From a virus (lineage: Duplodnaviria > Caudoviricetes), in IMG/VR virus record IMGVR_UViG_3300037462_000020, positions 1-53,687 of that record: a DNA stretch of 53,687 bases; one strand, written 5' to 3'. The notes under the pieces are model-generated. The model made no database searches. It was not told the DNA's origin and saw only the letters and a list, made by a program, of their open reading frames with translations. The position numbers were made by a program, and so were the translations under genes. Shown one piece after another: positions 7,178 to 29,242 of the stretch. Position 1 is the first letter of the stretch. Each line of letters starts with the position of its first letter.

Positions 7178-7179
7178 CC

Positions 7180-7208: not shown

Positions 7209-7213
7209 GTAGG

Positions 7214-7313: not shown

Positions 7314-7328
7314 CGCATGTAAATCAAT

Positions 7329-7357
7329 TTGTCTGAAAACAAGTCTTGTGCTACGAT
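7329..7357 (+). promoter_or_regulatory. sigma70-type promoter
   Basis: TTGTCT-17-TACGAT. Confidence 0.65.
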
Positions 7358-7379
7358 CCCTCAAAATCCGAGGAACAGC

Positions 7380-7673
7380 ATGACTTCTCCAATCTTCAAA
7401 ATTGGTGACACGATCAAAGTCGTTTCTCGGCTATTCGAGGATGATGGCACTCCTTTTCCGATCAACACCAAGGTCATTCGGTCTGTTCTGAAGAAAGGCA
7501 ATGAAGAAATCGTCGGCGTGAATCAGCTGACCGATAACTTCACGGTCATCACAATCTTCCAGACAACCGGAGCGACGGCTGGTCGCTATCAGACTGATAT
7601 CCGTTTCACGGAAGGAACCGAATCTTTCTCGACGCCAGTGGTGGTCGTCGATGTCGGACCGAGGATCAGCTGA
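7380..7673 (+). CDS. putative virion protein (beta-rich, BppU/Ig-like)
   Basis: RBS GAGGA; G.Y..DIRF motif. Confidence 0.6.
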   Translation: MTSPIFKIGDTIKVVSRLFEDDGTPFPINTKVIRSVLKKGNEEIVGVNQLTDNFTVITIFQTTGATAGRYQTDIRFTEGTESFSTPVVVVDVGPRIS

Positions 7674-7966
7674 TGAGAGTAGAGCAGGAATTCTCTGAAC
7701 TCTTCAGCTTGGATGCGCGGGTCTTCAAGATCACGAACCAGATGGCGTTCGTGGTCAACGCCGGAGGATCCTCTCTTCCCTACGTTCATACTCAGTCTTC
7801 GCCTTCCACCACTTGGGTCGTCAACCACAATCTCGGCTATCGTCCAGTCATTGAAGTTCTGAGTCCTGGTGGTATTGTCGTAGGTGCTGATGTCGTCCAT
7901 GTGTCTGTCAATCAGGCGCAAATCAACTTCAACAATCCCCAGACTGGGACCGTAACCGCGAGGTAA
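7673..7966 (+). CDS. putative virion fibre-associated protein
   Basis: YVHTQSSPSTTWVVNHNLGYRP motif typical of small phage fibre domains. Confidence 0.7.
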   Translation: MRVEQEFSELFSLDARVFKITNQMAFVVNAGGSSLPYVHTQSSPSTTWVVNHNLGYRPVIEVLSPGGIVVGADVVHVSVNQAQINFNNPQTGTVTAR

Positions 7967-7968
7967 TC

Positions 7969-8763
7969 ATGGCCAGAGATTTTCTGACTGACATCAATAT
8001 GGGTGGAGGCGCTCGGGTCATCGGGCTTCTCGATCCTGTCAACCCCCAAGACGCAGCGACGAAGGCATACGTCGATTCTGCTGTCGAAGGCATCGCGTGG
8101 AAATCGAACGTTCGTGTCGCTTCGACTGCGAACATCAACCTTTCCGCTCCGGGTGCCACGATCGACGGCATCACGATGGCGGTGAACGATCGCTTTCTCG
8201 CGAAGGATCAGACCACCCAGACTCAGAACGGCATCTATGTCTGGAACGGTGCTGCCACTCCGGCGACTCGTGCTGCTGACGCAAGCACGTTCGAGGAACT
8301 CGAGCAGGCTGTGGTCACCGCCGAGGAAGGCACTTCGAACGGTGGAACGACTTGGCGTCAAACCCAAGTGAATGGAACCGTCGGTTCCTCGAACATTCTG
8401 TTCACAGCTTTCGGCACGAGCGCAGGTGCTGCGACGGAGACCGCTGCTGGTGTCGCCGAGATTGCGACTCAGGGTGAGACGGATACGGGAACTGATGATA
8501 CCCGTTTCATCACTCCTCTGAAGCTGGCGAACTGGTCCGGTCGCAAGCGCAAGGCTTCCGCTGTGATCGGTGATGGCTCGGCCACCACCTTCAACATCGA
8601 TCACAACTTCAACACTCGGCAGGTCGTGGTCGAAGTCTACCGCAACAACGGCAACTTCGATACCGTGATCGCTGATGTGTCTCGACCGACGGTCAACCGC
8701 GTGACGATCACGTTCGCCTCGGCTCCGGCACTGAACGCCTACGAAGTCGTGGTTCTGGGGTAA
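7969..8763 (+). CDS. head/tail fibre-like structural protein
   Basis: DPVNPQDAATKAYVD, VRVASTANINLS.PGATIDG...R.L.KDQ....NGIY and GVAEIATQ.ET..GTDD..FITP fibre motifs. Confidence 0.8.
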   Translation: MARDFLTDINMGGGARVIGLLDPVNPQDAATKAYVDSAVEGIAWKSNVRVASTANINLSAPGATIDGITMAVNDRFLAKDQTTQTQNGIYVWNGAATPATRAADASTFEELEQAVVTAEEGTSNGGTTWRQTQVNGTVGSSNILFTAFGTSAGAATETAAGVAEIATQGETDTGTDDTRFITPLKLANWSGRKRKASAVIGDGSATTFNIDHNFNTRQVVVEVYRNNGNFDTVIADVSRPTVNRVTITFASAPALNAYEVVVLG

Positions 8764-8767
8764 GAAC

Positions 8768-9601
8768 ATGGTCATCGCAACAAGAGATCAGGCGTTCAAC
8801 GCTCTCGCCAACAACTCTTCGCGTTTCGTCTTGGAAAAAGCTTCCTTGGCGAACCAAGTCGCGAACACGCTTTGCAGCATGTGGAGATCTGCTGGTCAGC
8901 CTGCTCAGGGAGCGATTCCTGGAACGACTCCAGCTGTTCCGACGAAGGCTACTCTTGGAGCGATCGACTTCGCGAATCAGCTTTCCCCGGTCACCTCTTA
9001 TCTCCTCTGGGCTCTCGTTTACTCTGGAAACAGCGGCGGAGCAGTAGAATTTCATGATCGAGTCGCCCACATGGGAGGTCTCGTTCTAAACGTCACGACT
9101 GCTCAGAACATTACTGGTCTTGACATTTCCACTCTTGGGCTCGCTGCAGAACGTCGAGGGCCTGCTGATTTTTCTGATCTTCAGTGGTTCCTCGAAGTCT
9201 ACACCGATGGCGGTGCAACCGCTTCGAACGCAACAATCAACGTCACATATGATGATGCGACGACAGGAAACCTCACCGTCGTTGCTGTCGGCGGCACTCT
9301 TCGTGCTGGTCGAATGATTCCACTCACTCCTCTGATTCCTACCGCTCAGCAGGGGAAAAAGATTCGCGGTATCAACAGCGTGACTCTGAGTGCTTCTACT
9401 GGAACGGCTGGAAACTTCGGATTCACCTGCACCAGACAGAGAACTGGTGTCCCGATGGGACTCGCTGGAACTCCTTCGAAGCTGACTTGGCAAGACGGAT
9501 CGGCAGAAGTTCCGAACGATTCTTGTATCATGCTTGTCGTGAACTGCGCCACTACTTCTTCTGGAACAGTTCGCGGACAAGGCAAGATCGCTCATGGCTG
9601 A
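8768..9601 (+). CDS. putative virion structural protein
   Basis: Gly/Thr/Ala-rich beta protein inside the structural operon. Confidence 0.65.
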   Translation: MVIATRDQAFNALANNSSRFVLEKASLANQVANTLCSMWRSAGQPAQGAIPGTTPAVPTKATLGAIDFANQLSPVTSYLLWALVYSGNSGGAVEFHDRVAHMGGLVLNVTTAQNITGLDISTLGLAAERRGPADFSDLQWFLEVYTDGGATASNATINVTYDDATTGNLTVVAVGGTLRAGRMIPLTPLIPTAQQGKKIRGINSVTLSASTGTAGNFGFTCTRQRTGVPMGLAGTPSKLTWQDGSAEVPNDSCIMLVVNCATTSSGTVRGQGKIAHG

Positions 9602-9818
9602 TTTCGCCAGAATACAGAATTTCGATTCTGATTTCGGCCTGGATGAGAATTTCCAGTTCGATAACGATGTCGGCACAAAGATTGCGGACAACGATCTATT
9701 TGGAATCCCTGCTCCTCCCTCTACGGTTTATATCGGAGCAGCGGGTCAAGCCCAGAAGTATGTCGGTCTCAGAACCGAAGCGCAGCTATACGTCGGCGCT
9801 GGAGATCTTTGGCCGTAA
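9594..9818 (+). CDS. hypothetical protein (74 aa)
   Basis: Overlap-coupled; short Y(I/V)G repeats. Confidence 0.55.
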   Translation: MADFARIQNFDSDFGLDENFQFDNDVGTKIADNDLFGIPAPPSTVYIGAAGQAQKYVGLRTEAQLYVGAGDLWP

Positions 9819-9834
9819 TCCATACAAAACTTCC

Positions 9835-9863
9835 TTGCTGTGAGCAGGGAAGTGCTGTATGTT
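9835..9863 (+). promoter_or_regulatory. promoter of the major capsid gene
   Basis: TTGCTG-17-TATGTT with TG near the -10. Confidence 0.55.
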
Positions 9864-9951
9864 CGAAATCACTGAAGCCATGTGGCTTCAATCCATTGGA
9901 GCAGAACATGGGTTCGCTCATCCTCCACAGCGCCAATGAAAGGACATTCAC

Positions 9952-11013
9952 ATGGCCGCAGGTCCCACGGTTCGGGTGAGCGACGTTATCGTCCCCGAAG
10001 TCTTCACGCCCTACATGCAGCAACTGACCGAGGAGAAGTCGCGACTGGTTCAGTCGGGTCTGCTCGCTCGCTCCGAAGCGCTCGACACGCTGCTCGCTGG
10101 CGGCGGTCTGACCTTCCAGGTTCCCTCGTTCCGCGACCTCGACAACGATGCCGATCGCATCTCGACCGACACCTCGGTGCCGTTCGCTGATCCGGATGCT
10201 TCGCTGCCCGCTGGTGTCGCTCGGCCGCCGAACCCGCTGAAGATCCAGACCTCCAAGGAGATCGCGGTCCGGATGAACCGCAACAACTCCTGGTCTTCGA
10301 CCGACCTTGCTGCGATTCTCGCCGGCGTCGATCCCATGAATGCGATCGCTTCCCGCGTCGCTGCCTACTGGACTCGTCGTCTCCAGGCCTCTTTCATCGC
10401 GACGTGGCGTGGCGTCATCGCCGACAACGCTGCCAACGATGCTGGCGACTACATCAACAACATCAGCGGCGGTGCCTTCATCGACGGTGTGACCAACTTC
10501 TCGGCCGAAGCCTTCCTGGACGCTGCTCAGACGATGGGCGACTCGCAGGACGATCTGGTCGCGGTGGCTGTTCACTCGGTCGTCTACAACCGCATGATGA
10601 AGAACAACCTGATCGACTTCATCCCGGACGCTCGCGGCGAGATCAACATTCCGACCTTCCTCGGCCGTGAAGTGATCGTCGATGACGGCCTGCCCCGGAC
10701 CGGCTCGGTCTATGACACGTGGCTGTTCGGCTCGGGCGCGACCATGCTCGGCGTCGGCTCGCCTCCGGTCGCGACCGAAGTCGATCGTCGTGCTGGTGGC
10801 GGCAACGGTGGCGGTCAGGACGTCCTCTACTCGCGTGTCATGTGGACGATCCACCCGACGGGTCACGCCTTCGTGGGCGCTGGCGTTCCCGATGGTGGTC
10901 CGGCGAACTCCGGCACGGGCGGTCCCGACCTGGACGAAGCTGCCTCCTGGAACCGGGTCTACCCGGAACGGAAGCAGATCAAGTTCGCCCGTCTGGTCAC
11001 CCGCGAGGCGTAA
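9952..11013 (+). CDS. major capsid protein
   Basis: SDVIVPEVFTPY, VHSVVY..M.K..LIDF and TFLGREVIVDDGLP motifs; strong codon bias; terminator after. Confidence 0.93.
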   Translation: MAAGPTVRVSDVIVPEVFTPYMQQLTEEKSRLVQSGLLARSEALDTLLAGGGLTFQVPSFRDLDNDADRISTDTSVPFADPDASLPAGVARPPNPLKIQTSKEIAVRMNRNNSWSSTDLAAILAGVDPMNAIASRVAAYWTRRLQASFIATWRGVIADNAANDAGDYINNISGGAFIDGVTNFSAEAFLDAAQTMGDSQDDLVAVAVHSVVYNRMMKNNLIDFIPDARGEINIPTFLGREVIVDDGLPRTGSVYDTWLFGSGATMLGVGSPPVATEVDRRAGGGNGGGQDVLYSRVMWTIHPTGHAFVGAGVPDGGPANSGTGGPDLDEAASWNRVYPERKQIKFARLVTREA

Positions 11014-11028
11014 TCCTCCCTGTCGACT

Positions 11029-11057
11029 GAGAAGGCGGGCAACCGCCTTCTCTCTTT
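11029..11057 (+). terminator. intrinsic terminator
   Basis: GAGAAGGCGG-GCAA-CCGCCTTCTC then TCTTT. Confidence 0.75.
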
Positions 11058-11075
11058 CACGCTCAGGAGGGAACA

Positions 11076-11594
11076 ATGGGCAAAGGTCTTCCTCGTTCGA
11101 TGTCCCGAGGTGCTGCTCAGCAGCAGGACATCATCAAGCAGAATTTCGTCATTCGCGGAACGGTCGCTGTCACCGCCACGGGTGCCGCTGTCGGTTGGGG
11201 GACTGCCGTTATCGGCGATCTGCCCAAGGGCAACATTCTGCTCTTGGGCGCTGTCGCCTATGTCCAGCTTGCTGGCTCTGGCGCGGATCCCAACCTCGAC
11301 GCAACGTGGGATGGGGACTTCTCCATCGGCACGGCTCCGACTGCCGATGTCACGCTTTCGGGCGCTGAGATCGACATCATCGGCTCGACCGCTCTTGGCG
11401 CTGCCACGGCGGAGGTCTCTCCCCGCGTCCGCGCTGTGAACGCAACGCAGGCGATCTTCGACAACACGGACAACTCGCTCGAGTTGAACCTGAACGTGCT
11501 GGTCGATGCCGCCAACATCGTCGACGGGGCGACCGTCAACCTCACCGCCAGCGGCGTTCTGCAACTGGCCTACATCGTCATGCTTGACGACTGA
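11076..11594 (+). CDS. virion structural protein (capsid decoration candidate)
   Basis: RBS AGGAGG; directly after the capsid gene; beta-rich. Confidence 0.7.
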   Translation: MGKGLPRSMSRGAAQQQDIIKQNFVIRGTVAVTATGAAVGWGTAVIGDLPKGNILLLGAVAYVQLAGSGADPNLDATWDGDFSIGTAPTADVTLSGAEIDIIGSTALGAATAEVSPRVRAVNATQAIFDNTDNSLELNLNVLVDAANIVDGATVNLTASGVLQLAYIVMLDD

Positions 11595-11608
11595 TACGGA
11601 GAAGTGAT

Positions 11609-12268
11609 ATGGATATCCGGGAAGCTCTTTCTCAACTCGACACCCTGAACGACGACCACTGGACGTCCGAAGGCGCGCCGAAAATCGATGCTGTGAAGGA
11701 ACTTCTCGGAGGTCCTGTCACCCGTCAGGACATCATCAACGCGGCTCCGCATTTCAGCCGCGAGAACCCGATCGTGGAAGAGGAGAAGTCCAATGCCGAA
11801 GAAGGGCAAGGGGTATTCGAAGGGCGGCAAGAAGAAGTGATCATCGATTCTGCTCTGCTGGACGAGTTCGCCCAGAAAGAGCCGATGGACCCGAACCTCT
11901 TCTTGGGCTTCCTGATGACCGTTCCCACCGCTGGTCTTCAGGAACTCCTGGAAATTCTCCAGGAACAGCAGAGCGGTGTCGAAGCGAATCGCAAGAAGCT
12001 GGATGAGATGGATCTTCGCATCCGTCACGCCATGCTTCACACCAAGGCTCGCATCAACCGCGAAATTCCTGACGTCAGCGATCGTGAGGCGAACATGGCC
12101 TACATCAAGCGTCAGCAGGAACTTCGCGCTGCGAAACACGCCGCCACCACTCAGCTTCTGAAGGGTGTCGATCTGAAGAGCCTCGATCCTCGCGCTCCGA
12201 TCGATCGGGCGATGGCCCGCAAGACGCAGCGTGGTGTTCACCGTCCGAACTTCGGCGTGAAAGGGTAA
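11609..12268 (+). CDS. hypothetical protein
   Basis: N-terminal LD..NDDHWT..G.P small domain plus coiled coil. Confidence 0.75.
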   Translation: MDIREALSQLDTLNDDHWTSEGAPKIDAVKELLGGPVTRQDIINAAPHFSRENPIVEEEKSNAEEGQGVFEGRQEEVIIDSALLDEFAQKEPMDPNLFLGFLMTVPTAGLQELLEILQEQQSGVEANRKKLDEMDLRIRHAMLHTKARINREIPDVSDREANMAYIKRQQELRAAKHAATTQLLKGVDLKSLDPRAPIDRAMARKTQRGVHRPNFGVKG

Positions 12269-12272
12269 CGTC

Positions 12273-12638
12273 ATGGCGCTGGATCCGAAAGCTGCGAAGT
12301 CGAAGATCCAGCGTGATCGTCGGGTGGAGCGTAGCCGAAAGGAACGCTTCGCCGGACTGATCCAGACCCCGGCCTCGCTGCCCCTCCCGCTCCCCGAGGC
12401 CGGGGTCATCGGTGTCTCTTCAAGTGTCGCTGTCTCGCAGGGTCAGTTGATCATCACGACCTCAACTGGCCGCACTCTTGGAACTCCGAACCTCGCCGCG
12501 AATGAAGTCTGGAGGATCGGCTTCTTCGAGCGCGGAGTTGAGATCAACATCACCGCTGGTCCCAACGGAACGGCTCGGCTTCATTATCTGGACGATCGCC
12601 GTGAGGCGTCGATCATCGCAGCGAGAAACTTCCCATGA
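12273..12638 (+). CDS. hypothetical protein
   Basis: Fills the gap in the operon; ATGA overlap with the next gene. Confidence 0.6.
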   Translation: MALDPKAAKSKIQRDRRVERSRKERFAGLIQTPASLPLPLPEAGVIGVSSSVAVSQGQLIITTSTGRTLGTPNLAANEVWRIGFFERGVEINITAGPNGTARLHYLDDRREASIIAARNFP

Positions 12639-13480
12639 GCATGATTGTAGAGGACGGCTCCGGCATCTATGAAGCCAACTCCTATGCTGGCCTCTCCTAT
12701 GCTCATTCCTACCTTCATCGCAGAAATCGGCACTCCACTTGGGATGCTACGACTGCTGCTGTTCGTGAAGCTGCTCTGATCGCTGCCACCGATTATATCG
12801 ACAAGCGTTTCGGATCTTCGTTCCTCGGTCACAAGAAGTTCACCGAGTTGAGCGTCGCAGCTTCGAACTTTCTTCAGTTCAACACCCAACCGACGAATGG
12901 AAACAGTGTGACGATCGGATCAGTCACTCTGACCTTCGTGAACAATGCTCCTGGAGCAGGAGAAGTTGAGATCGGTTCCACCGTCGCTGTGACGATCGGA
13001 AATGTTCTGACCGCTCTCGCTTCGCACCCTCAGGTCGATGCTGAGACTGCTGGTTCCAACTCTATCATCGTCCGGAACAAGCTGACTGGTGAACAGGAAG
13101 ATATTCTCTGCTCCGCAATCTCAAACCACATTGAGTGGGACTATGACAAGCTGATCGGTGGAATCGATTCCACTGAGCAGATGCTGGAGTGGCCCAGAGA
13201 AGGAGCGATCTCCCGCGTCGGTGTTCCGTTCATCGGTATTCCCGAGAAGCTTCGTCAGGCAACTGTCGAATATGCCTTCCGCGCAATCAGCGGAACCCTC
13301 ATGCCTGATCCTGTCACCTCCGACACCGGACAGGACGTCCGTCGCATCATGGAGAAGGTCGGGCCGATCGAAACTGAAACGGCCTATTCGAACACCGTTC
13401 GTCAGATCTTCAAGAAATATCCGGAGGCTGATCGGCTTCTCGGTGAACTGATCGGCTCAACTGGAGGGGTCTATCGGTAA
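12635..13480 (+). CDS. head-tail adaptor (DnaT-like phage family) with an internal insertion
   Basis: IVEDGSG...ANSY, ALIAATDYID, Q.LEWPR, IP..LRQA..E.A and EKVGPIE motifs. Confidence 0.85.
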   Translation: MSMIVEDGSGIYEANSYAGLSYAHSYLHRRNRHSTWDATTAAVREAALIAATDYIDKRFGSSFLGHKKFTELSVAASNFLQFNTQPTNGNSVTIGSVTLTFVNNAPGAGEVEIGSTVAVTIGNVLTALASHPQVDAETAGSNSIIVRNKLTGEQEDILCSAISNHIEWDYDKLIGGIDSTEQMLEWPREGAISRVGVPFIGIPEKLRQATVEYAFRAISGTLMPDPVTSDTGQDVRRIMEKVGPIETETAYSNTVRQIFKKYPEADRLLGELIGSTGGVYR

Positions 13481-13872
13481 TGGTCGACTACGTCAAACTC
13501 GCAGCGACTGCTGAAAGGCTGGTTCGTGAGAATGGTCGACCGATATCTTTCGTGAGAAAGGCAGGCGGGCCGATCGATCCTTCCAGACCTTGGAAGGGAT
13601 CGGTCGATTCCGAGGATATTCTCGAGCTCAACGGTGTTTTCGTGACGCCGAACCAAGTTCGCATCTTCGGCCTGTCCGCCTTGGGCGAAGGCACCGAGTT
13701 CATCGATATGGTTTCGTTCAGTGAGCAGATTATCATCACCTGTCCTGGGGAGAATGATCTTCGTCTCTACCAGACAGTTCGTGATGGAACTATCAACTGG
13801 AACGTGACCGCCTATCAGTTTCTCCGCCCGGGAACCCTCAACATTCTTGCGTTCGTGGGGACCAGACGATGA
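13480..13872 (+). CDS. head closure/head-tail joining protein
   Basis: Position; DY.KLA.TA.RL...NGR start. Confidence 0.7.
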   Translation: MVDYVKLAATAERLVRENGRPISFVRKAGGPIDPSRPWKGSVDSEDILELNGVFVTPNQVRIFGLSALGEGTEFIDMVSFSEQIIITCPGENDLRLYQTVRDGTINWNVTAYQFLRPGTLNILAFVGTRR

Positions 13873-14288
13873 GCAACATCACCTTCGAGCAGGCCGTTGA
13901 TGATATGCAGACGATGGTTCTCGCTGCATGGACTCCGACTGGACATCAGATCTTCTGGGAAGCCGTTCAAGGCGACCGTGAAGTGGACGACACGGCGTGG
14001 GCCGTCTCAACGATCCGTCATGTGACTGGTCGTCAACAGACACTCGGTGGCATCGGCAATCGCGCCTTTGAACGCACCGGGATCATATTTCTGCAGATCT
14101 TCACTCGTGTTGGAAATGGCTTGCAAGAATCCTATCAGTTGGCTAAAGTAATGGCTGATGGTTTCGAAGGGAAGTCCTCTCCCAACGGGGTCTGGTTCCG
14201 GAATGTCCGGATCAATGAAGCTGGAAAAGACGGTGCATTCACTCAGACGAATGTGACAGTCGAGTTCCAATACAACGAAGTCAAGTAA
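13869..14288 (+). CDS. tail terminator protein
   Basis: R.G...LQIF...G.G motif; sits before the tail tube gene. Confidence 0.8.
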   Translation: MSNITFEQAVDDMQTMVLAAWTPTGHQIFWEAVQGDREVDDTAWAVSTIRHVTGRQQTLGGIGNRAFERTGIIFLQIFTRVGNGLQESYQLAKVMADGFEGKSSPNGVWFRNVRINEAGKDGAFTQTNVTVEFQYNEVK

Positions 14289-14298
14289 GGAGGCCGCA

Positions 14299-15852
14299 AT
14301 GGCACAGGTCCAAAAGATCGACTCCAACATCACCGGTCTCGCCTATGCCCAGGAGGCTCAGCTTGGCCTGCTTCCCGGTGAAGGTGGACTCGGTGGCACC
14401 CCGACGTGGTATCGTCTGGAGCCGAACAGCTACAACGACTTCGGTGGCGAGATTGTCACCGTCGCACCGAACCCGATCAACCCGTCCCGTCAGCGCCGCA
14501 AGGGCGTGACCACGGATCTCAACGCGGCTGGTGGCTTCAACCACAACCTGACCTTCCAGAACCTCACGGATCTGATGCAGGGCGTGATGTTCGCCGACAT
14601 TCGCCGCAAGGGACGCCAGACGGTCACCGCTGTCGACATCGATCTCGCAAACCCGGACGAGTATGAGGTCGCAGCGACTGCTGGCTTCCTCGTGAACTCG
14701 CTGATCAAGGGCATCGGCTTCGCCAACTCGGCGAACAACGCTCTGAACGTCGTGACTGCGATCACCACGAATACCTCGGTCGAAGTGGCCACGGGTCTTC
14801 TGGTTGCAGAACCGGCTCCTCCGACGGGTGCTCGTATCGACGTGGTCGGCTATCAGGCGGTCGCTGCCGATCTGAACGTTGACGTCACTGGCGACCTTCC
14901 GGCGCTGACGTCGACGACCCTGGACTTCACCACTCTGGGCATCGTGCCCGGACAGTGGGTGTTCGTGGGCGGGGACACCGCTCCCACTCGCTTCGTGACG
15001 GCTGCGAACAATGGCTTCAAGCGTGTCCGTTCGGTCGCTGCCAATCGCCTGACCTTCGACAAGTCCTTCACGGCGATGTCCGCGGAGACTGGCACGGGCC
15101 TCACGATTCGCCTTTTCTTCGGTGATGTTCTGCGGAACGAGACCGGCGCTCTCATCAAGCGGCGGACCTACAACGTCGAGCGTCTGCTCGGTGCGCCCGA
15201 CGACGCTTCGCCGAACGCGGTTCAGTCCGAAGTTCTGAAGGGTGCTGTGCCGAACGAGTTCACGCTGAACATTCCCTCGGCCGAACTGGTGAACGTCGAC
15301 TTCACCTTCGTGGCGACGGACAACGAGCAGCGCGATTCGGTGACCGGACCCAAGCAGACCGCCGTCCAGACCTTCGCCACCGCGAAGGAATACAATACGT
15401 CGAGCGACGTGGGTCGGATCCGGCTGTCCACTGTGTCCCAGACGGATGAAGCCCCTGCGGCTCTGTTCGCCTACGTCACCGAGGCAACGATCTCGATCAA
15501 CAACAACGTCACGCCGAACAAGGCGGTCGGTGTTCTCGGCGCGTTCGATGTGACTGCTGGCACCTTCACGGTGTCTGGCGAACTGACGGCCTACTTCTCC
15601 AACGTGTCTGCGACGCAGGCTGTGCGGAACAACGTGGACGTCACGCTGGACATCTCCTTCGTGAAGGACAACACCGGCATCGTCTACGATCTGCCGCTGA
15701 TCGCTCTGGGCGATGGGCGTCTGAACGTGGAAGTCGATCAGCCGATCACGCTGCCTCTCACCACGGATGCGGCGTCTGGTCAGGACGTGGCCCAGAACCT
15801 GGACCACACCCTCCTGATCACCTACTTCAACTACCTCCCGAACGCGGCGTAA
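14299..15852 (+). CDS. major tail tube protein
   Basis: W..LEPNSY.DFGG, PINPSRQRRKG..TDL and F.VSG..TAYF motifs; hairpin after the stop. Confidence 0.9.
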   Translation: MAQVQKIDSNITGLAYAQEAQLGLLPGEGGLGGTPTWYRLEPNSYNDFGGEIVTVAPNPINPSRQRRKGVTTDLNAAGGFNHNLTFQNLTDLMQGVMFADIRRKGRQTVTAVDIDLANPDEYEVAATAGFLVNSLIKGIGFANSANNALNVVTAITTNTSVEVATGLLVAEPAPPTGARIDVVGYQAVAADLNVDVTGDLPALTSTTLDFTTLGIVPGQWVFVGGDTAPTRFVTAANNGFKRVRSVAANRLTFDKSFTAMSAETGTGLTIRLFFGDVLRNETGALIKRRTYNVERLLGAPDDASPNAVQSEVLKGAVPNEFTLNIPSAELVNVDFTFVATDNEQRDSVTGPKQTAVQTFATAKEYNTSSDVGRIRLSTVSQTDEAPAALFAYVTEATISINNNVTPNKAVGVLGAFDVTAGTFTVSGELTAYFSNVSATQAVRNNVDVTLDISFVKDNTGIVYDLPLIALGDGRLNVEVDQPITLPLTTDAASGQDVAQNLDHTLLITYFNYLPNAA

Positions 15853-15889
15853 GCCGCGTTCACTCCTGCCAGAAAGAAGGATACTGCAT

Positions 15890-16318
15890 ATGGGAATGTA
15901 TGACACATTCGAGACGGACCCGAACATGGAACAGGAAGGCGTCTTCCTGGACTATGGTGATTTCCGGGTTCGCATCGCTCACGCCGGACAGGGCAACTCC
16001 AAGTATGTGAGATACGCGGAGAAGAAACTCAAGCCCGTCCGGAAAGCGATGGAGGCTGGCGCTCTGGGCAATGAGCGTTCCATGGCTATCATGATCGATA
16101 TCTACAGCGAGTCGATCATTCTGGACTGGCAGGTCCGCGAAGGCGACGAGTGGAAGTCCGGCATCGAAGCCCGTGATGGATCGGTGATGAAGTTCACCCG
16201 TGAGAATGTCGAGGCGACTCTTCGGGCGCTGCCCAATCTGTTCCTCGATATCCAGCAACAGGCTCAGTCGATCGCGAACTTCCGCCGCGCTGACCTCGAG
16301 GAAGAATCGGGAAACTGA
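15890..16318 (+). CDS. tail assembly chaperone (gpG-like)
   Basis: Between tail tube and tape measure; ends at slippery site GGGAAAC. Confidence 0.85.
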   Translation: MGMYDTFETDPNMEQEGVFLDYGDFRVRIAHAGQGNSKYVRYAEKKLKPVRKAMEAGALGNERSMAIMIDIYSESIILDWQVREGDEWKSGIEARDGSVMKFTRENVEATLRALPNLFLDIQQQAQSIANFRRADLEEESGN

Positions 16319-16644
16319 CAGAGGTCCTTCAGTATCAGCTGATACAAGGACCAGTCGAATCCCAGATCATTCAGCAGGCCGTGAAACACGGCCTGCCTCT
16401 TCCTGAGAAAATCCAAAATGCCCCTAGTCTTTGGCCGGGGCTTGAACTATACTACATAGGGTTCATGGATCTCATGGCCTCCAGACAGTCCGGCATGGGT
16501 CTTGGACCGATCTGGTGGGGAACGATCCAGGACTACTGCGAAAGGAAGGGCCTCGACGAGGAACAGACCGAAGCCATGCACTTGCACATTCGAGCGATGG
16601 ATGAGGTCTACATGAAACACGTTCAGCAGAAGACGAAGAAGTAA
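16309..16644 (+). CDS. -1 frameshift extension of the tail chaperone (gpGT-like)
   Basis: G GGA AAC at 16309-16315; the -1 frame is open into ORF 16381..16644. Confidence 0.8.
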   Translation, partial: GKLTEVLQYQLIQGPVESQIIQQAVKHGLPLPEKIQNAPSLWPGLELYYIGFMDLMASRQSGMGLGPIWWGTIQDYCERKGLDEEQTEAMHLHIRAMDEVYMKHVQQKTKK

Positions 16645-17138
16645 TGGCCACTCTCGCGCAATTCTCTCAGAATATCCGCAAGCGCGGATCGCAGATTGAG
16701 AACGCGGGAACTCGTTTCACGAAGACCGTTGCGAAACGTGCGTTGAGGGCTCTTGTGAACGCCACCCCTGTCGATACTGGTCGCGCTCGTTCCAACTGGC
16801 GCGTAGGTATCGGCGCTCCCACTCGTGCTGAAATTGAACCGTATGCCGAAGGCAAGAAACTCGGCATTGGTGAAAGAGCCAACGCCAACGCTGCGATCGC
16901 TGCTGGTCTCGCTCGGATCAACAGTGTTCGTGGTGTCTCTGGACGTGGGCTCGAGACCGCGATCTATATCAACAATAACACTCCTTACATCGGCAATCTG
17001 CCGAATGGTAAGGGGCTGAACGATGGATACTCTCCTCAGGCGGCTCCCGGTTTCATCGAGGCTGCTCTCCTTGAAGCGCGCTCTGTTCTTCCGAATCTGC
17101 GTGTCTTCACCAGTCGCGATGATGACGGAGACGAATGA
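16644..17138 (+). CDS. tail completion/neck protein (HK97 gp10-like)
   Basis: TPVDTGRARSNW...IYI.NN.PYI..LN.G.S.QA motif. Confidence 0.85.
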   Translation: MATLAQFSQNIRKRGSQIENAGTRFTKTVAKRALRALVNATPVDTGRARSNWRVGIGAPTRAEIEPYAEGKKLGIGERANANAAIAAGLARINSVRGVSGRGLETAIYINNNTPYIGNLPNGKGLNDGYSPQAAPGFIEAALLEARSVLPNLRVFTSRDDDGDE

Positions 17139-20100
17139 TGGTCAGAGAAAACGTCGATATCGTCTTTCGTGAATCAGGTATCCGAGTCATCAAGAGAAAT
17201 CTCGATGAACTCGGTGAGTCTGCGAACCGTGCAACTCGCGGCGTGTTTCTTCTTCAGCGGGCACTGTTCGTTCTCGGTGGCTTCGGCATCACGAGGGCGT
17301 TGATCGCCCAAGCGGATGCGCTGACCAACCTTGAGAACAGACTTCGTCTGACCACGAACTCTTCTGTCGAGTTGCAGCAAGTTCAGACTGAACTGTTCGC
17401 TATCGCTCGTCGGTCTCGCGCCGATCTTGAAGGTGTGGCTCAGACCTATACCAGAACCGCGCTGTCTGCGAAAGCATTGGGTCGCTCTCAGGAAGAGGTT
17501 CTGAAGTTCACTGAGTCAGTCACGAAAGCTGCCGTGCTTTCTGGTGCAAGCACTCGAGAGATCAACGCCTCCCTGATCCAGCTTGGTCAGGGTATTGCGT
17601 CGAACCGCCTCGGTGGTGACGAACTTCGTTCTATTCTGGAACAGCTTCCGCTCGTTGCAGACATCATCGCAAAGGAACTCGGGGTGACCCGTGGTCAGCT
17701 TCGTGAACTCGGTTCCGAAGGCAAGATCACTGGCGACATCATTCTCGATGCCTTCAAGAATGCGGCCGACGAAATCGACGCTCTGTTCGCGAATACACAA
17801 CCGACGATTGAACAAGCGTTCACCGTGGCGAGAACGAACTTCCTGGAATTCTTGGATACGTTTGATGATGCGACTGGCGCTTCCGCGAAGCTGGCCAATG
17901 CGATCATCTTCGTTTCGCAGAACATCGATCTTCTCGTTCGGTCCGCCGCTGTTCTCGCTGGGCTTCTCGCTCTCAGCTTCGCTGGCTCTGTGTTGACTTC
18001 TATCTTCACCTACGCCAACGGTCTTCGTGCGACTGCTGTTCAAGCGACTGCTGTTCTCAATCGGCTGGTCGCCATTCGTGGTGCGACCGTTGCGAACACC
18101 GCTGCTCAGGTTGCAGCGAATGCTTCTCGTCAAGCACAACTCACGCAGAACCTTGCACTCATCGCTCAGAAGAAGGCCCTGCTCCAGCAAGAGGTCCTCG
18201 AGGCTCAGTTCGTTGTTCGCAATGGTCAGGCTCGAAATATTCAGACTGGTCAGTTCGTGAGGCTCTCCGCAGCGAAAGCGAACCTCGCTCGACTGACGCA
18301 GCAACTGAGTATCGTTGAAGGCGTGGAGGCCGCACAGGCCGCTAGGCTAACGCAAGCGCGGGCGGCACAGGCGGGGGCCACCAATGCCCTAGCAGGCGCA
18401 CAGGCGCGGCTTGGCGCGGCACAGGCGGCACAGGCGGGGCTTGGGGCAAGGCTGGCCGCACAGTTCCCGCTTCTGGCTGGTGCAATCAACGCCGCGAGAG
18501 TCGCACTCGGCGGTCTGTGGGCTTTGCTGGCCGCGAATCCGATCACCGCTGTCATCAGTCTGATCGCGGCACTGGTCATCGGTATCGTGGCCTTCGGCGA
18601 CAAGATCGAATTCGCAAGCCTCGGCTTCGTTACTCTGAAGGATCTCGCGGTTGCCTCTCTCCAGCTGATCAGCGAGGCTTTGGCTCCCTTCCTTGGGCCT
18701 ATCTGGGACTTCATAAAGAATGCGGTGTCGACTGTCGGCAGCGCGATTGGATCTGCGTTCTCGACCGCAGCGACTGTGATCGCTCAGGTGGTCACGACGA
18801 TCATCGACACCGTGACTTTCCTGCCTCGTGTGGTGATTGCGATTGTCGCTGGTATCAATGCAGCATGGGACTCGATTCCCGCTGCTGCTGGTGCTGCGAT
18901 TGACAAGTTGACCGATATGTTCGCGACTGGCATGGAGTTCATCGCCAATCTCGGCATCAAAGCTGTGAACAAGATCATCGAAGCGTTCAATGGTCTTGCT
19001 GGAACCAAGGTCGGCGAACTCCTTGGGATTGACGCCGCTGAACTCATTCCTGAAGCGACTTTCGATAATCTCCGGACGAACTTCGGCGGAAGCGGAAAAG
19101 CTGCTGGCGATGCTTTCTCGAGTGCTTTCACTTCGAGCCTCGAGTCTACTCGCATTGAGAACATCGTCGGGTCGATCGGAAGTCAGATCGTTCAGCGAGC
19201 CCAAGAGAATGCGGCTACCGCTCGCTCTGATCGTATGTTGCAGGAAATGGCTGCTCAACGCGCTGCTGAAGAAGCGGCTGCGAATAACATCGTTCCTGGA
19301 GACGTTGGTGGCGGCGGTGGCGGTGGAGGAGGCGGCGCTCAACAAGCTGACTTCGCCAGCAAGATCGCAGCTATGCAGCAAGAGATCCAACTTCTGCAAC
19401 TCGGAAACCGTGAGCGTAAGATCGCTCAGGAACTGATCAACATTGAGAAAGAACTGAAGCGCGGCCTGACTGATCAGGAACGCGAACTCGCTGTTGCGAC
19501 CATTCAGCAACTGGAGGCAGCGCGTCAACAGGCTGAGGTTCTCGAGAGCATCGTCGGTCCTCGTGAGAAAGCAATCGAGCAGATGACTGCTCTGAATGCT
19601 CTGTTCCAGCAAGGACGAATCAGTGTTCAGGAATATGCCGCTGCTGTTCTGGAGATGGGCAACGCCCTGAACGCTGCAAGCGGAACTCTGATGGGTGGCT
19701 TCAAGGCCGCTATCGGCGAATCCATCATGAACGTCTCCGAATTCGGGAAGGCGATCGGTGGTCAGTTCGTCGGGTTCGTCAACAGCGCCGCAGATGCTAT
19801 CGTCGAGTTCGCGAGAACTGGTAAGCTGAACATCAAGCAACTCTTCGCTGAACTGTTCGCGAACCTGCTCAAGCTGGCGGCTCAACAACTTCTGCTTCGA
19901 CTGCTCGGTAGCTTCCTCGGTATTCCTGGAGGCGGCATCGGTCTTGGAACTCCGGTCGGGTTCGCGACAGGTGGTTCTATTCTTCCTTCTGGGCCTGGAA
20001 CCACCGACAGCCAACTGGTTCAGTTCAAGAAGCGTCCTGATGAGCGTGTCGATATTCTTACGCCTCAGCAACAGAAAGCCCAAGCGAATGCGATGGCTGG

Positions 20101-28300: not shown

Positions 28301-28511
28301 TCGTCTGTTCATCAACGGTATCATGGAAGCCAAGTCCACGACGCTGACTGGTGCAGTCGGCGGAACTGGTGCTGTTATCGTTGGTGGAAACCAAGCTGGT
28401 TCCAACGACCGTTGGCGCGGGCTTCTGGACGAGATTCGTATCACCAAGGGCGTGGGTCGCTATAACTCCGACAGTGCCTTCACTCCGCAACCATTCTATT
28501 CGAGGTCGTGA
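25365..28511 (+). CDS. central tail/host-specificity protein with C-terminal LamG/ConA-like domain
   Basis: P.A.E..PIP.V.G, PAY.G and MNPAE.IY motifs; FGTGDFTIEGW...G.LDEIRITKGV.RY C-terminus. Confidence 0.88.
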   Translation: MIWFTLALFVVSFLLTALLAPKPQFENARPDQLNPDSFPRATENAPIPLVLGKVRMEAPNTIWYGHFESRPITERIRVSLFKKKTVTVGHTYYLGLNLALAMGPRTALREIYCDDKLLWSGSTNLTTPTSFSIDQPTFFGGHKEGGGFASSCTYYPGALDLTGNPIDSYLVSQLGAGNVPAYLGTAHIVFNQAYIGETAGLRKMAFVLENYSNALGLPNNGKIGDDMNPAEAIYQIMTDTWRGMGLDPAIINVPQLQAIGTTLFNEGNGCSVLVTAESNGTQLIQEIFRQIDAIAYQDPDNGQINFILIRDDYDPDTLPVYDELDVLKVVNFSRSGWDEVVAQVKVTFPQRDRESDAVAISQDMATVAMIGRLRSTTISMPFVYDKTLAANIASRERAQLSVPLFRITLEMNRNAYGLRPGSVFKLDWPEYGFSGLVLRVQEFDLGSLLDGKIIVKCLQDSFSLATTVFAPPPDSAWVAPVTDPMPIVNSVVIEMPKFFAQQIEYPIDDGRVGYIPLAAKPGAASNAFDFAAGEVTGVLDSRDPEYAQYVGSGVLTAVYLNTAGIENGFDSTGTIQVNGANGSIFSGSPLATIRDGDGGLLWINGEWLGFTTAVDLGGGAWNLSGIYRGLFGTRPLTHNIGTRVYQVSTDFLPSGVIELAEGATLFFKFLDRAGRKAQELSQVSQSTIVLNGNVQNRPLRPSFLQLAGQRTGISINDFVAKSLTWRPRNRLVTQAAIEDDAAQTPDIAETYDVDVMVNGVRNSTLSGVSVTSPYVVPFNLTNINQLNCEFRVFARRTAGDSRVSATYAWLPFEMNQTYSPPADPHIASVVLLIGAEGADGSTTIIDESPVGRTLTANGACAIETTGALQQTSSLAVNQANEGTGFLNAGASSDFNFGTGDFTIEGWAKSNFNDAIFFHSIIGNFTGTDTGSWSVFVTDDPTNNINFTVDQASGSFDLSGTTDLGTGIFHFAVSRNGTTVRLFINGIMEAKSTTLTGAVGGTGAVIVGGNQAGSNDRWRGLLDEIRITKGVGRYNSDSAFTPQPFYSRS

Positions 28512-28747
28512 TGGACGCAGAAGAAAGAGAAGCGCGGTTTCACAATCGCAGACGAATCGCCAAGCACAGCTTTCTTCTGATGTCTGGCACTCTCCTTGGG
28601 CTGATGGCCTTCGCTCTTTCGAGTGACGCAGCAGCCCAAAGAGTGTCTCAGATTCAGTGGTTGGTCGGCATCGCCGCGAGCCTGTGGTCAACATTGGTTC
28701 TCGGCTATTATGCCGCAGCAAGCTATGAACAAGGCCGCGCCCAATAG
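28511..28747 (+). CDS. putative holin (two transmembrane helices)
   Basis: RRR followed by two hydrophobic helices; first gene of the lysis block. Confidence 0.6.
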   Translation: MDAEEREARFHNRRRIAKHSFLLMSGTLLGLMAFALSSDAAAQRVSQIQWLVGIAASLWSTLVLGYYAAASYEQGRAQ

Positions 28748-28890
28748 GCGGGCCGCTGGTGGCCCTTGGCCGCTGGCCGCACCCTACCCCCTGCCGGGGG
28801 CCTTTGCCGCGCTGGCGGGGCCGCTGGCGCGGGGCTGGTGGCCAATGGCACAGGCCAGCCGCCACCAACACGTCTACAGGTGTCCAAAGG
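28728..28890 (+). repeat. GA/TC-free conserved element, copy A
   Basis: No GA/TC at 28728-28873; ACCCTACC at 28781; GCCACCAACA-N5-ACAG-N2-GTCCA at 28861. Confidence 0.85.
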
Positions 28891-28900: not shown

Positions 28901-29242
28901 ATGCTCCCGTGGGTTGTGCTGCGACGGTTTTTGCCGTATATCATCGGTATCATCGTGATCCTCGGCATGGGCTACTGGATCTATACCTCTGGATATCGTT
29001 CTGGCGTTGATGTCACCGTCCGAATGTATGAGCAGAGGATTCAGGAAGAACGTGAGCGACTGCTCGCCGCCAATCAGGCAGCACAAGAAGCCGCAAGGAA
29101 GAAAGAAGCGGAACTTCAACGCCTGCTGAGTGAGAGAAATGACACGATTCGGGTTCTCATGCAAGAAGCGTTCAACGATCCCAATGCTGGCAATGTCGCT
29201 ATCGGTGCTGACAGCGTGCGGCGAATCGATCGGATCCGTTGA
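28901..29242 (+). CDS. inner-membrane spanin (Rz-like)
   Basis: RBS AAGGAGG, N-terminal transmembrane helix, coiled coil, overlapped by a lipoprotein gene. Confidence 0.8.
   Translation: MLPWVVLRRFLPYIIGIIVILGMGYWIYTSGYRSGVDVTVRMYEQRIQEERERLLAANQAAQEAARKKEAELQRLLSERNDTIRVLMQEAFNDPNAGNVAIGADSVRRIDRIR

Follow-up and report, generated by a model that had tools for sequence, protein, structure and literature searches.

A GA- and TC-free island in frame within the tape measure gene of an uncultured siphophage and its relatives: a possible unmodified site for DNA wrapping

What keeps a stretch of 139 nt inside the tape measure gene of a phage completely free of GA and TC, when these dinucleotides are over-represented in the genome as a whole? 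The question is raised by 53,687 nt of DNA from an uncultured siphophage, analysed at full length and called the window hereafter. GA/TC positions account for 9255 of its 53,687 positions (17.2%), and the ratios of observed to expected counts are 1.35 for GA, 1.44 for TC and 1.40 for the two combined. The longest GA/TC-free run expected by chance is ~48 nt; the runs found measure 622, 146, 142, 139, 122 and 85 nt. When the ten strand-symmetric dinucleotide classes were compared, only GA/TC had runs several-fold above the expected maximum, the sole other run exceeding 1.5 times expectation being an AA/TT run of 152 nt that falls within the 622-nt GA/TC-free run. The 139-nt gap is bounded by the GA at 18326-18327 on one side and by the TC at 18465-18466 on the other, and chance as its source is rejected on this evidence. 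The features concerned are collected in Table 1.

Table 1. Positions of the GA/TC-free or GA/TC-poor stretches and of the genes discussed in the text, in window coordinates
Feature	Coordinates	Strand	Remarks
Large GA/TC-poor island, whole transcription unit	1394-2236	+	Strict run 1477-2098, 622 nt
ORF A, 141 aa, no Asp or Glu	1484-1909	+	Ala/Pro/Lys-rich tail and possibly winged-helix domain
ORF B, 61 aa	1983-2168	+	Basic N-terminus and hydrophobic helix; within the large island
Minor GA/TC-poor intergenic patch	7185-7260		Runs of 42 and 34 nt; after scaffold gene
Tape measure protein gene, 1041 aa	17135-20260	+	Aligns with annotated YuA and M6 tape measure proteins
GA/TC-free island, in frame in tape measure gene	18327-18465		Codons 398-442; G+C ~0.70
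Small GA/TC-free island, 146 nt	28728-28873		Between small membrane-protein ORF (28511-28747) and spanin-like gene (28901-29242)
GA/TC-poor A+T-rich intergenic region	30348-30548		Runs of 85, 36 and 56 nt; upstream of HNH and helicase genes
5-hmdU DNA kinase	38612-39535	+	PF18723, E 6.4e-33, 114.8 bits vs cutoff 25
Group-1 glycosyltransferase	39782-41071	+	Adjoins kinase; in clade-wide modification module with 241-aa ORF 37881-38606
Thymidylate-synthase homolog, candidate dUMP hydroxymethylase	41071-42042	+	PF00303, E 5e-23; followed by HD-domain protein 42043-42591
Small GA/TC-free island, 142 nt	42987-43128		In-frame linker in DUF3310 gene (42594-43205), upstream of PolA
Small GA/TC-free island, 122 nt	50318-50439		Between primase (47829-50258) and ligase genes

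The tape measure gene gave a blastn match to the annotated tape measure genes of YuA and M6, its protein aligns at 32-33% identity over the entire length, and the gene order around it, with the tail chaperone genes on one side and the distal tail genes on the other, is collinear with that of M6. The island is translated as AAQAARLTQARAAQAGATNALAGAQARLGAAQAAQAGLGARLAAQ and sits in a coiled-coil stretch of ~125 aa, directly before a hydrophobic FPxLAG segment; the whole coiled-coil stretch is missing from the tape measure proteins of M6 and Bhz59. The first-pass annotation had described an in-frame island of ~139 bp with an abrupt shift toward the codons CTA, AGG and GGG, and both observations hold. 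Across 14 distinct orthologous islands, CTA makes up 43% of Leu codons compared with 9% in the rest of the gene, AGG 36% of Arg codons compared with 6%, GGG 47% of Gly codons compared with 9%, and AGC 92% of Ser codons compared with 12%. The annotation had further mentioned repeats and an inverse match to another island. The repeats are present, with five copies of GCACAGGC spaced by 33, 33, 21 and 9 nt (nine copies in the window, 1.8 expected), and the 12-mer GCCGCGCCTGTG occurs exactly at 18399-18410 on the minus strand and at 50377-50388 on the plus strand; but this match is weak evidence of common origin, because the shuffle null ignores the G+C-rich, GA/TC-free composition that the islands share.

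The small islands of the window and its relatives are 70-170 nt long, G+C-rich and T-poor (pooled T 13%). No shared motif was found in k-mer counts over 17 islands, which returned just generic G+C-rich words (GGCCGC in 12 islands, GCTGGCCG in seven). CTAG was counted 20 times in 1638 nt of tape measure islands and 111 times in 41,715 nt, and the frequency of CTAG and CCTA words in these islands is to a large extent caused by the forced codon choice. Chi-like words (GCTGGTGG) were noticed by eye in two islands. Structured RNA was considered and rejected, as six islands (both strands of four from the window, the plus strand of two orthologs) folded no better than shuffled sequences, with z between -1.6 and +0.25.

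Selection on the island was seen directly in comparisons with orthologs. Among 43 tape measure orthologs, i.e., relatives found by homology, 19 (14 distinct sequences) contain a GA/TC-free run of 70-170 nt; its start is invariably at codon 398-410, and no other run in the gene is as long. A profile search of metagenome contigs with the tape measure profile found no relative. In the nearest relative the island occupies the same codons and has the same length of 139 nt, at 73% nucleotide identity. None of the 37 island substitutions since the split of these two sequences created a GA or TC, while ~32% of random ones would (P ~8e-7); in the flanks only half of the GA/TC sites are in common. Given each protein sequence and the codon usage of the gene itself, 6.5-12.6 GA/TC would be expected and none was observed, with probabilities of 7e-7 for the window, 1e-8 for G001, 1.6e-6 for G004 and 7e-5 for G005. 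The sequence of the orthologous islands is not conserved. These results support the view, at the level of sequence comparison, that the constraint acts on DNA and not on protein.

On the genome scale, small islands are found at up to five syntenic places including the tape measure gene, 7-17 kb apart, in relatives with ~50% protein identity, and the genomes concerned have the kinase, the glycosyltransferase and the ThyA-like module in common. The number of islands per genome varies from one to six. Of 33 loci whose kinase is at least 55% identical, 17 have the PolA-side island; every locus with a more distant kinase lacks it. Of distinct runs measuring 90-180 nt, 43 were counted over all loci, and their lengths concentrate at 112-146 nt; the small islands of the window measure 122-146 nt. 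Two further stretches of the window stand apart: the intergenic region upstream of the HNH and helicase genes is of a different kind (G+C 0.39-0.51), and at the place of the patch after the scaffold gene no run of at least 70 nt was found in relatives. The membrane-protein ORF preceding the spanin-like gene is holin-like in our own reading, with no family match. Headful-cut sites, recombination in the terminal redundancy and bending points of the capsid spool were dropped as explanations, because the spacing and the variable number of islands do not fit them.

Thus, of the claims in the first-pass annotation, that of a constraint on DNA has passed the ortholog comparison, in which neither synonymous nor non-synonymous changes created GA/TC, and the idea of a function needed at intervals along the chromosome agrees with the up to four other syntenic places. 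The picture of a discrete repeated element with a conserved core has to be given up: the orthologous sequences are unconserved, and the tape measure island resembles the other islands of the window by only 70-83% over 29-50 nt. Normal GA/TC content in relatives that modify their DNA, which the annotation had named as evidence against its proposal, was found in part of the clade. The island is kept in 19 of 43 orthologs but missing in 24, and the homologous 150 nt of the tape measure gene of G002 contain ~11 GA/TC despite the same modification genes in that genome; G002 has none of the small islands, though both the modification module and ORF A are present. The island is therefore selected where present but not indispensable, and its function must be dispensable or replaceable.

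The presence of a 5-hmdU DNA kinase, a glycosyltransferase and a ThyA-like module indicates that the phage hypermodifies thymidine, and this pathway makes GA/TC plausible as the modification motif. The kinase, which presumably sets the sequence context of the modification, is conserved at 63-75% identity in G001-G005 and shares no more than 30% identity with any kinase among 50,697 phage records; it is paired here with the group-1 glycosyltransferase and an FkbM-type methyltransferase. Hypermodification of T has been described in the TG context in phage 15599 (PMC13458397) and in Pbunavirus (bioRxiv 10.1101/2025.03.31.646159), and in the TG/TC context in M6, ViI and PhiW-14 (PMC6449724). Modification in M6, ViI, PhiW-14, PaMx11, Acinetobacter phage 15599 and Pbunavirus is limited to a dinucleotide context; the set of a 5-hmdU DNA kinase, a thymidylate-synthase homolog and tailoring enzymes is common to these phages and the window. 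For the window, TC is the probable modified context judging from sequence statistics alone; the presumed motif is over-represented (1.40), as is CA/TG in PhiW-14 (1.32). Unlike the window, M6, Bhz59, PhiJL001, 14-1 and PhiW-14 have no run of any dinucleotide class above ~1.65 times expectation (first 50 kb of PhiJL001 and 14-1; first 50 kb of the 157 kb of PhiW-14), and no motif-free island was found in the 50 kb of PhiJL001 despite its kinase, glucosyltransferase and similar GA/TC excess. Hypermodified phages can therefore manage without such patches.

In the small islands A/T is phased at 10-10.5 bp. For the 14 tape measure islands, z was 10.4-12.7 relative to GA/TC-free codon shuffles, a level that 0 of 300 shuffles reached; against a dinucleotide-preserving null, z was 5.7 for 16 PolA-side islands and 3.6 for seven lysis and ligase islands. 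Phasing was absent in 600 non-island control segments and in the large ORF A islands. Compared with the other segments of its own gene, the tape measure island ranks first in phasing in G000, G001 and G004 (0 of 182, 0 of 186 and 0 of 186 segments reach it) and within the top 1% in G005. Taken singly, five of 14 named islands (p at most ~0.012) and seven of 16 PolA-side islands (p at most 0.022) are phased; the PolA-side and lysis islands of the window itself gave p of 0.29 and 0.09. These statistics overstate the number of independent cases, because orthologous islands share ancestry, and in the tape measure gene the 3.5-residue repeat of the coiled coil alone could give a 10.5-nt signal. The phasing fits any protein that wraps DNA and has nothing specific to gyrase.

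We tentatively propose that the islands are adduct-free patches, maintained by selection, on which a protein may wrap DNA, the lead candidate being host gyrase; this reading is possible rather than probable. Thymine would be replaced through the 5-hmdU pathway, and the DNA kinase would mark hmU in 5'-TC-3'. A stretch without TC or GA would then carry adduct on neither strand in any state of the chromosome, because it has no TC on either strand. Under selection, 45 codons of the tape measure gene have been recoded, within a coiled-coil spacer where many amino-acid changes are tolerated, and the same has happened at up to four other syntenic places. Conserved are the absence of the motif, a length of ~10-14 helical turns, a high G+C combined with little T, and A/T at every 10-10.5 bp. 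Since A/T phasing is a signature of DNA bent on a protein surface, the small islands may be read as places where a protein incapable of handling adduct-covered DNA docks or wraps the DNA. Such a site could serve replication or topology. The island, the selection on it, its synteny and the phasing are thus observed; TC as the modified motif, the wrapping and gyrase belong to the interpretation.

Host DNA gyrase, which these phages must borrow, could be that protein; a search of five genomes, of which four are at least 97% complete, found no type II topoisomerase domain. The analogy is with the strong gyrase site (SGS) of Mu, which is needed for Mu replication, and with the E. coli gyrase motif known from Topo-seq, a degenerate 130-bp motif with G/C arms phased at 10.75 bp that matches the gyrase footprint (both from PMC6379681). 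Gyrase sites are ~130 bp long, too degenerate for a consensus and phased at 10.75 bp; the islands, 70-170 nt long and unconserved in sequence, fit this length, and at group level their phasing comes near. The Mu SGS has no counterpart to the complete absence of one dinucleotide from both strands within a hypermodified genome, and the islands also differ in lying at several sites per genome, some of them inside coding sequence.

The same phased, adduct-free patch might be bound by a phage protein, either the acid-free, histone-H1-like ORF A product or another nucleoid-type protein, which would bind plain DNA only and, nucleating at the islands, would help to organise, condense or import the chromosome. 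We regard this as rather doubtful. Its attraction is that the ORF A gene is itself the most conserved GA/TC-free island (20 of 21 islands of relatives examined, and all six whole genomes), in a GA/TC-free transcription unit of 0.6-1.2 kb, and that small-island phasing is compatible with any wrapping protein. The ORF A family is confined to this uncultured group, with 207 metagenomic homologs and no match in 50,697 phage records, and a basic tail without acidic residues is found in 77 of the 120 best-scoring homologs listed. The AF2 model (pLDDT 77, pTM 0.65) matched mostly winged-helix domains in the VIA structure search, many at Z 3.5-5 and the best at Z 5.3 (8as8_E, rmsd 4.1, 81 residues aligned), but these matches are weak and below the noise guidance of the tool; Foldseek found nothing (best E 3.1), and no Pfam or PHROG match was obtained. 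Moreover, G002 carries ORF A without small islands, the islands have no common sequence motif, and DNA binding by ORF A is putative. It is unlikely, too, that the islands are transcription signals kept unmodified for the host polymerase, the tape measure island being an internal promoter for the distal tail genes. The large island would suit such a role, since it is a complete unit, conserved in relatives, whose start precedes a sigma-70-like -35/-10 pair by 20-35 nt and which spans ORF A, a hairpin (1926-1951) that separates the two ORFs, and ORF B; three small islands lie directly upstream of gene starts and have a common 3' motif in the window, and in YuA nine of 21 mapped transcription starts carry a phage-specific motif (bioRxiv 10.1101/2023.10.13.562163). 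The composition of the small islands, G+C-rich and T-poor, speaks against promoters, however, and the consensus scans were at chance level (nine sigma-70 matches in positions 1-20000 where 6.3 were expected, 24 sigma-54 matches where 23.4 were expected). No sigma-70-type match falls within 18200-18600 in a sigma-70 and terminator scan of positions 1-20000, and no sigma-54 pattern within the tape measure island. Two islands, those of the tape measure and DUF3310 genes, are translated as linkers and are not followed by a gene start, one island lies between the small membrane-protein ORF and the spanin-like gene, and a promoter needs neither 100-170 bp nor a 10-bp phasing.

If the islands were origins, loading sites for primase and helicase, or strand-exchange patches on an adduct-covered template, the two of them that flank the PolA-primase block would be well placed, and their length and phasing would fit, as origin complexes also wrap phased DNA; besides, the first round of replication must begin on fully modified parental DNA (PMC8989533). 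However, neither iterons nor an A+T-rich unwinding element occur in the islands, their sequence is not conserved, their number differs among genomes, and their spacing is too wide for recombination within the terminal redundancy, so that such a role seems quite improbable. Shelter from host defences against modified DNA, i.e., modification-dependent nucleases or glycosylases that would find nothing to cut or excise, is a still fainter prospect. YuA, M6 and other T-hypermodified phages are attacked early in infection by nucleases, against which phages carry inhibitors (bioRxiv 10.1101/2025.03.31.646159), and a whole target-free gene unit (ORF A with ORF B) would remain expressible; but protecting a tape measure spacer or a linker would make no sense, a genome cleaved at all its other sites would be lost in any case, and the phasing and the common size of ~120-146 nt would be left unexplained. 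Least credible of all is that the DNA has no function, the Ala/Gln-rich spacer having grown by slippage of GA/TC-free 9-nt units or a mobile repeat having landed in frame. The repetition of GCACAGGC and other short units, an internal 60-nt duplication in the G001 island, and the similarities of 29-50 nt together with the one exact inverted 12-mer among the window islands would be accounted for in this way. The absence of GA/TC from the 37 later substitutions and from all 14 distinct orthologous sequences would not. Low complexity alone does not explain the island either, because the poly-Gly tract of the same gene uses GGA and the low-complexity stretch of G002 does contain the motif; the globular part of ORF A is likewise encoded without it. 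Recent insertion is ruled out by positions that are syntenic across ~50% protein divergence, and a MITE-like repeat was rejected on this ground and for the low similarity of the copies; no terminal inverted repeats surround the islands among the 25 inverted pairs shown of 256 found. Both slippage and recent mobile insertion are thus rejected, and the explanation without function is largely refuted.

Phage genomes are known to avoid restriction sites and other short motifs, with selection removing a word regardless of the protein encoded, normally across the whole genome. Here the word is over-represented genome-wide and absent just in sharply bounded islands. Vertebrate CpG islands and the base-J-free regions of trypanosomes are stretches that escape a pervasive base modification and serve as entry points for proteins. 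CpG islands keep the motif and block the enzyme, whereas in the phage the motif itself is deleted from the sequence, so that the escape from modification would be hard-wired. In a full-text search of a limited literature collection, no earlier description of such islands was found.

Carried further, and here we are speculating with considerable doubt, the chromosome of the phages of this clade would be adduct-covered DNA punctuated by hard-wired 'modification deserts'. The small deserts, of the size of a nucleosome or gyrase footprint and phased, would be the sole grip sites for a wrapping protein, which may be host gyrase or the acid-free, linker-histone-like protein of the phage whose gene lies in the largest desert; in the latter version that gene would work no matter how the remainder of the genome is modified. 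Whether a dinucleotide occurs or is missing would in this way act as a primitive chromatin code of a virus. As a rule, the DNA of hypermodified phages is regarded as uniformly protected, and the clade studied here keeps sharply bounded stretches free of the presumed target at the same genome positions across deep divergence, despite the cost of a recoded essential structural gene and a protein without Asp or Glu. If the proposal is true, a modification motif could be read from metagenomic sequence as the dinucleotide that is over-represented overall and absent in islands, and the old question of how enzymes of replication, topology and transcription cope with bulky base adducts would become testable by synonymous recoding. 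The islands would then be cis-sites at which host machinery makes contact with the phage chromosome, and may be weak points for defences as well as handles for engineering.

GA (O/E 1.35) and TC (O/E 1.44) were the commonest dinucleotides in the window, jointly occupying 17.2% of positions, and the longest run free of both expected by chance was ~48 nt. GA/TC-free runs of 622, 146, 142, 139, 122 and 85 nt were found, and no other dinucleotide class had comparable runs in the window. The 139-nt run corresponds to codons 398-442 of the tape measure gene (1041 aa); its translation is the same as that given in the first-pass annotation. The abrupt codon shift described there was also recovered: CTA, AGG, GGG and AGC dominated in 14 distinct orthologous islands, displacing the CTC/CTG, AGA/CGT, GGT/GGA and TCN usual in the gene. 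In these 14 lineages leucine was CTA in 43% of island cases, although CTG is likewise GA/TC-free, and CTAG was 4.6 times commoner inside the islands than elsewhere in the gene (20 in 1638 nt vs. 111 in 41,715 nt). For all islands of six whole genomes pooled, the O/E of TA was 1.27 inside and 0.55 outside. The window's tape measure island contains five copies of GCACAGGC, spaced by 33, 33, 21 and 9 nt. It lies in a coiled-coil stretch of ~125 aa, absent from the tape measure proteins of M6 and Bhz59, directly upstream of a hydrophobic FPxLAG segment. As 17 of the 45 island residues differ from the nearest relative, compared with 76% identity across the whole protein, this part of the protein tolerates change.

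In the nearest relative (tape measure protein 74-76% identical), a 139-nt GA/TC-free run is limited by the same bounding codons. Between the two islands, 37 substitutions in 135 positions have produced not a single GA or TC (P ~8e-7; a random substitution in such sequence makes one in ~32% of cases), while half of the GA/TC sites in the 300-nt flanks are common to both. When the protein was held fixed and synonymous codons were drawn from the remainder of the same gene, 6.5-12.6 GA/TC were expected vs. 0 observed, with P(0) of 7e-7 in the window and 1e-8, 1.6e-6 and 7e-5 in the related genomes G001, G004 and G005. Chance or protein composition as the cause is ruled out by this codon null and the 37 GA/TC-free substitutions. 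A profile search returned 46 tape measure loci, 43 of which, window included, span the island site. In nineteen (14 distinct sequences), the longest run of the gene measures 70-170 nt and starts at codon 398-410; the other 24 lack the island, with longest runs of 23-60 nt, still at codons 403-444 in 14 of them. The related genome G002, with the same modification genes, has ~11 GA/TC across the homologous 150 nt, and GGA codons occur in the poly-Gly tract of the same gene in the window; low complexity therefore lowers GA/TC density without abolishing it. The island is actively maintained where present, and the clade is viable without it.

Terminase-based and kinase-based searches, together with whole genomes G001-G005 (59-68 kb), revealed islands at matching genome positions in phages with proteins ~40-80% identical to those of the window (see table). 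The six whole genomes all had the ORF A unit island, as did most terminase loci extending that far, and G002 had no small islands whatever. Several of the 16 loci that, with kinases at least 55% identical, did not show the DUF3310-gene linker island stop short of its place; it was absent in loci with more distant kinases. The DUF3310 ORF continues through the island to a conserved ...(M)EHPFGYDD tail. In this nucleotide-kinase-like protein, in the window and L113-L144, the island encodes a variable Ala/Gly/Pro/Thr linker, and linker plus conserved C-terminal peptide form a docking-peptide-like architecture. The spanin-side, PolA-side and primase-ligase islands of the window have short mutual similarities and a common 3' end, CCGCCACCARCA...ACAG, followed by the ribosome site of the next gene; this sequence is not kept in the orthologous islands of relatives. 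No islands of any dinucleotide were found in M6, Bhz59, PhiJL001, 14-1 and PhiW-14 (first 50 kb for the last three). The A+T-rich region at 30324-30547, unlike the window's G+C-rich islands, is the best candidate for an early promoter region. Near-identical or related sequence occurs in contigs of sequencing runs X1-X20, from 9 studies, which sampled wetlands, animal guts, soils, fresh water, drinking water and wastewater (shares <0.2 verified in X6, X7 and X13).

Positions and occurrence of the islands, genes and neighbouring features (L-numbers, contig loci of relatives)
Feature	Position	Description or occurrence
Tandem 34-nt repeats	window 1217-1324	three (TCGTATTCATCATCCTCTAT...), very TC-rich, directly upstream of large island
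5'-UTR stem-loop	window 1438-1483	before ORF A; conserved at same place in 19 relatives
ORF A	window 1484-1909	
ORF B	window 1983-2168	small membrane ORF
ORF A unit	between terS-like gene and terL	0.6-1.2 kb, GA/TC-free or nearly so
Tape measure island	window 18327-18465; codon ~400	window genome, its nearest relative, G001, G004, G005; weak in G003
Island ahead of spanin-like gene		window genome, G004; L133 and L140 by position
DUF3310-gene linker island	upstream of PolA	17/33 loci with kinase at least 55% identical
Primase-ligase island	between primase and ligase	window genome, L006, G004, G005
5-hmdU DNA kinase	window 38612-39535	PF18723, E 6e-33
Group-1 glycosyltransferase	window	
Thymidylate-synthase homolog, HD-domain protein	window	
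DUF3310 protein	window 42594-43205	
PolA, primase-helicase, ATP-dependent ligase	window	
UDG-superfamily protein, FkbM-type methyltransferase	window	
Modification module	window 37881-41071, 46520-47161, 51784-52290	kinase, unannotated 241-aa protein, group-1 glycosyltransferase, FkbM-type methyltransferase, UDG-superfamily protein
AC/GT-free runs	L138:9787-9980, L142:6143-6297, L144:9781-9955	154-193 nt (2.3-2.9x expectation)
A+T-rich intergenic region	window 30324-30547	G+C 0.39-0.51; GA/TC scarce; flanked by leftward small ORFs on one side, HNH and SNF2 genes on the other
Chi word GCTGGTGG (E. coli consensus; may not be the host's)	window 28753-28802	twice, in the 28.7-kb island, by eye
Chi word GCTGGTGG (same consensus)	L002:4192-4331	once, in a relative's tape measure island, by eye

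The small islands have no shared motif except generic G+C-rich words, and their sequence is not conserved. Six islands folded against shuffles had no RNA structure beyond composition. Their G+C is 13-16 points over that of the genome, T amounts to 13%, and the lengths of 43 distinct runs (90-180 nt) cluster at 112-146 nt. TC is absent from both strands, and the constraint therefore acts on duplex DNA. A/T positions recur at 10-10.5 bp. For the 14 tape measure islands this phasing gave z of 10.4 and 12.7 (0/300 GA/TC-free codon shuffles as high) and, against a dinucleotide-preserving null, 5.7 for 16 PolA-side islands and 3.6 for 7 lysis and ligase islands, where codon periodicity is absent; orthologous islands are not independent, and shared ancestry inflates these statistics. 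Taken one by one, 5 of the 14 named islands were significantly phased (the PolA-side and lysis islands of the window were not), as were 7 of the 16 PolA-side islands. When all equal-length windows of the tape measure gene were ranked, the island came first in the window genome, G001 and G004, and within the top 1% in G005. The coiled-coil repeat of 3.5 residues could add to the signal within this gene. Phasing was found neither in 600 non-island segments nor in the large ORF A islands.

The window record (53,687 bp; completeness estimate 85%) is nearest to the YuA/M6 Pseudomonas siphophages in gene order and weak DNA similarity. Since it encodes a 5-hmdU kinase, a glycosyltransferase, a thymidylate-synthase homolog and others, the phage is predicted to be thymidine-hypermodifying, of the 5-hmdU type. 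Its modification gene set is unlike that of M6, PaMx11 and ViI, and may point to a thymidine hypermodification not yet described, perhaps one that carries a sugar. AC/GT-free runs adjoin the kinase gene upstream in three contigs that are more distant; these could be another motif desert or a plain low-complexity tract. According to passages of PMC8989533 and PMC5889632, every T in the 5-hmdU pathway is first made as hmU, which the DNA kinase then marks "in sequence-specific contexts" for further chemistry. In the relatives that have been examined, T is modified in a single dinucleotide context: TG in phage 15599 (PMC13458397) and Pbunavirus (bioRxiv 10.1101/2025.03.31.646159), and TG/TC in M6, ViI and PhiW-14 (PMC6449724). 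The modified context is over-represented in PhiW-14 (CA/TG, O/E 1.32, first 50 kb) to an extent similar to GA/TC in the window (1.40), where the TC context is deduced from sequence.

The obvious candidate for the TC reader would be the phage's own hmU kinase. If the kinase reads TC, the islands, which lack it, would thus never be able to bear the modification adduct, and an adduct-free patch of ~130 bp could be the site where a protein, most likely host gyrase, wraps DNA. The E. coli gyrase motif is described as 130 bp with arms phased at 10.75 bp, the size of the gyrase footprint, and phage Mu replication as needing such a site (PMC6379681). The small islands are likewise ~130 bp, degenerate, G+C-rich and A/T-phased at 10 bp, and no type II topoisomerase domain was found in the 5 genomes searched; gyrase wrapping is therefore ranked first, as a tentative reading with somewhat less than an even chance. 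That the selected TC-free patch is unmodified, that it is wrapped and that gyrase does the wrapping are inferences. The small-island features fit wrapping proteins in general, none singling out gyrase, and the lack of the island in 24/43 orthologs, G002 without small islands, and the absence of islands in other hypermodified phages count against a wrapping site.

Instead of gyrase, ORF A or some other nucleoid protein could read the same adduct-free patch, a possibility that we consider unlikely. ORF A is a real, conserved protein of 120-160 aa (31-57% identity among relatives) with an Ala/Pro/Lys/Thr-rich tail, H1-like in its Ala/Pro/Lys, and a folded domain of ~80 aa. Asp and Glu are absent from the window's ORF A and from 77 of the best 120 metagenomic homologs, 22 others having one; across the family (207 or more metagenomic members) they make up 0.5% of residues, and Ala 28%. 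No match was found in Pfam, PHROG or phage records. The AlphaFold model (pLDDT 77) gave weak structure matches, mostly to winged-helix domains (best Z 5.3), and the predicted winged-helix fold is a lead, not a result; ORF A may act as a linker-histone-like protein of the phage or as an early DNA-binding protein. Of 20 versions of its gene, 8 lack GA/TC and others have as many as 16. The ORF A unit island begins 20-35 nt ahead of a sigma-70-like promoter; beyond this come the 5' stem-loop, the ribosome site AAAGG, ORF A itself, a hairpin and the small membrane ORF. The stem is GGCAAGC/GCTTGCC in the window, and the loop is CAATGG in many relatives; together with the GA-free AAAGG, the stem-loop suggests a stable, strongly expressed ORF A mRNA. 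Other short repeats, e.g., CGCCACATTTC x3 and AACAAATTGTTACAG-type palindromes, stand in relatives at the place of the window's tandem repeats, and such repeats may be operator, pac or iteron sites.

The remaining explanations are ranked lower still. First among them are transcription signals; no promoter consensus was found at the small islands (sigma-70 scan of window 1-20000; sigma-54 pattern). Next come replication or recombination sites, offered in the first-pass annotation as examples of a DNA-level function, then shelter from modification-dependent defences and, last, islands without function.

In a limited literature collection searched by full text, no account of islands free of modification or of a motif in the genomes of hypermodified phages was found. 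Phased gyrase sites, motif avoidance and T hypermodification specific to a dinucleotide are each known separately. That the islands amount to a "viral chromatin code" is rather improbable in our judgment; as far as seen, what is new is the combination of a motif-enriched genome with sharply bounded, syntenic, selected motif deserts, some of them within essential genes.
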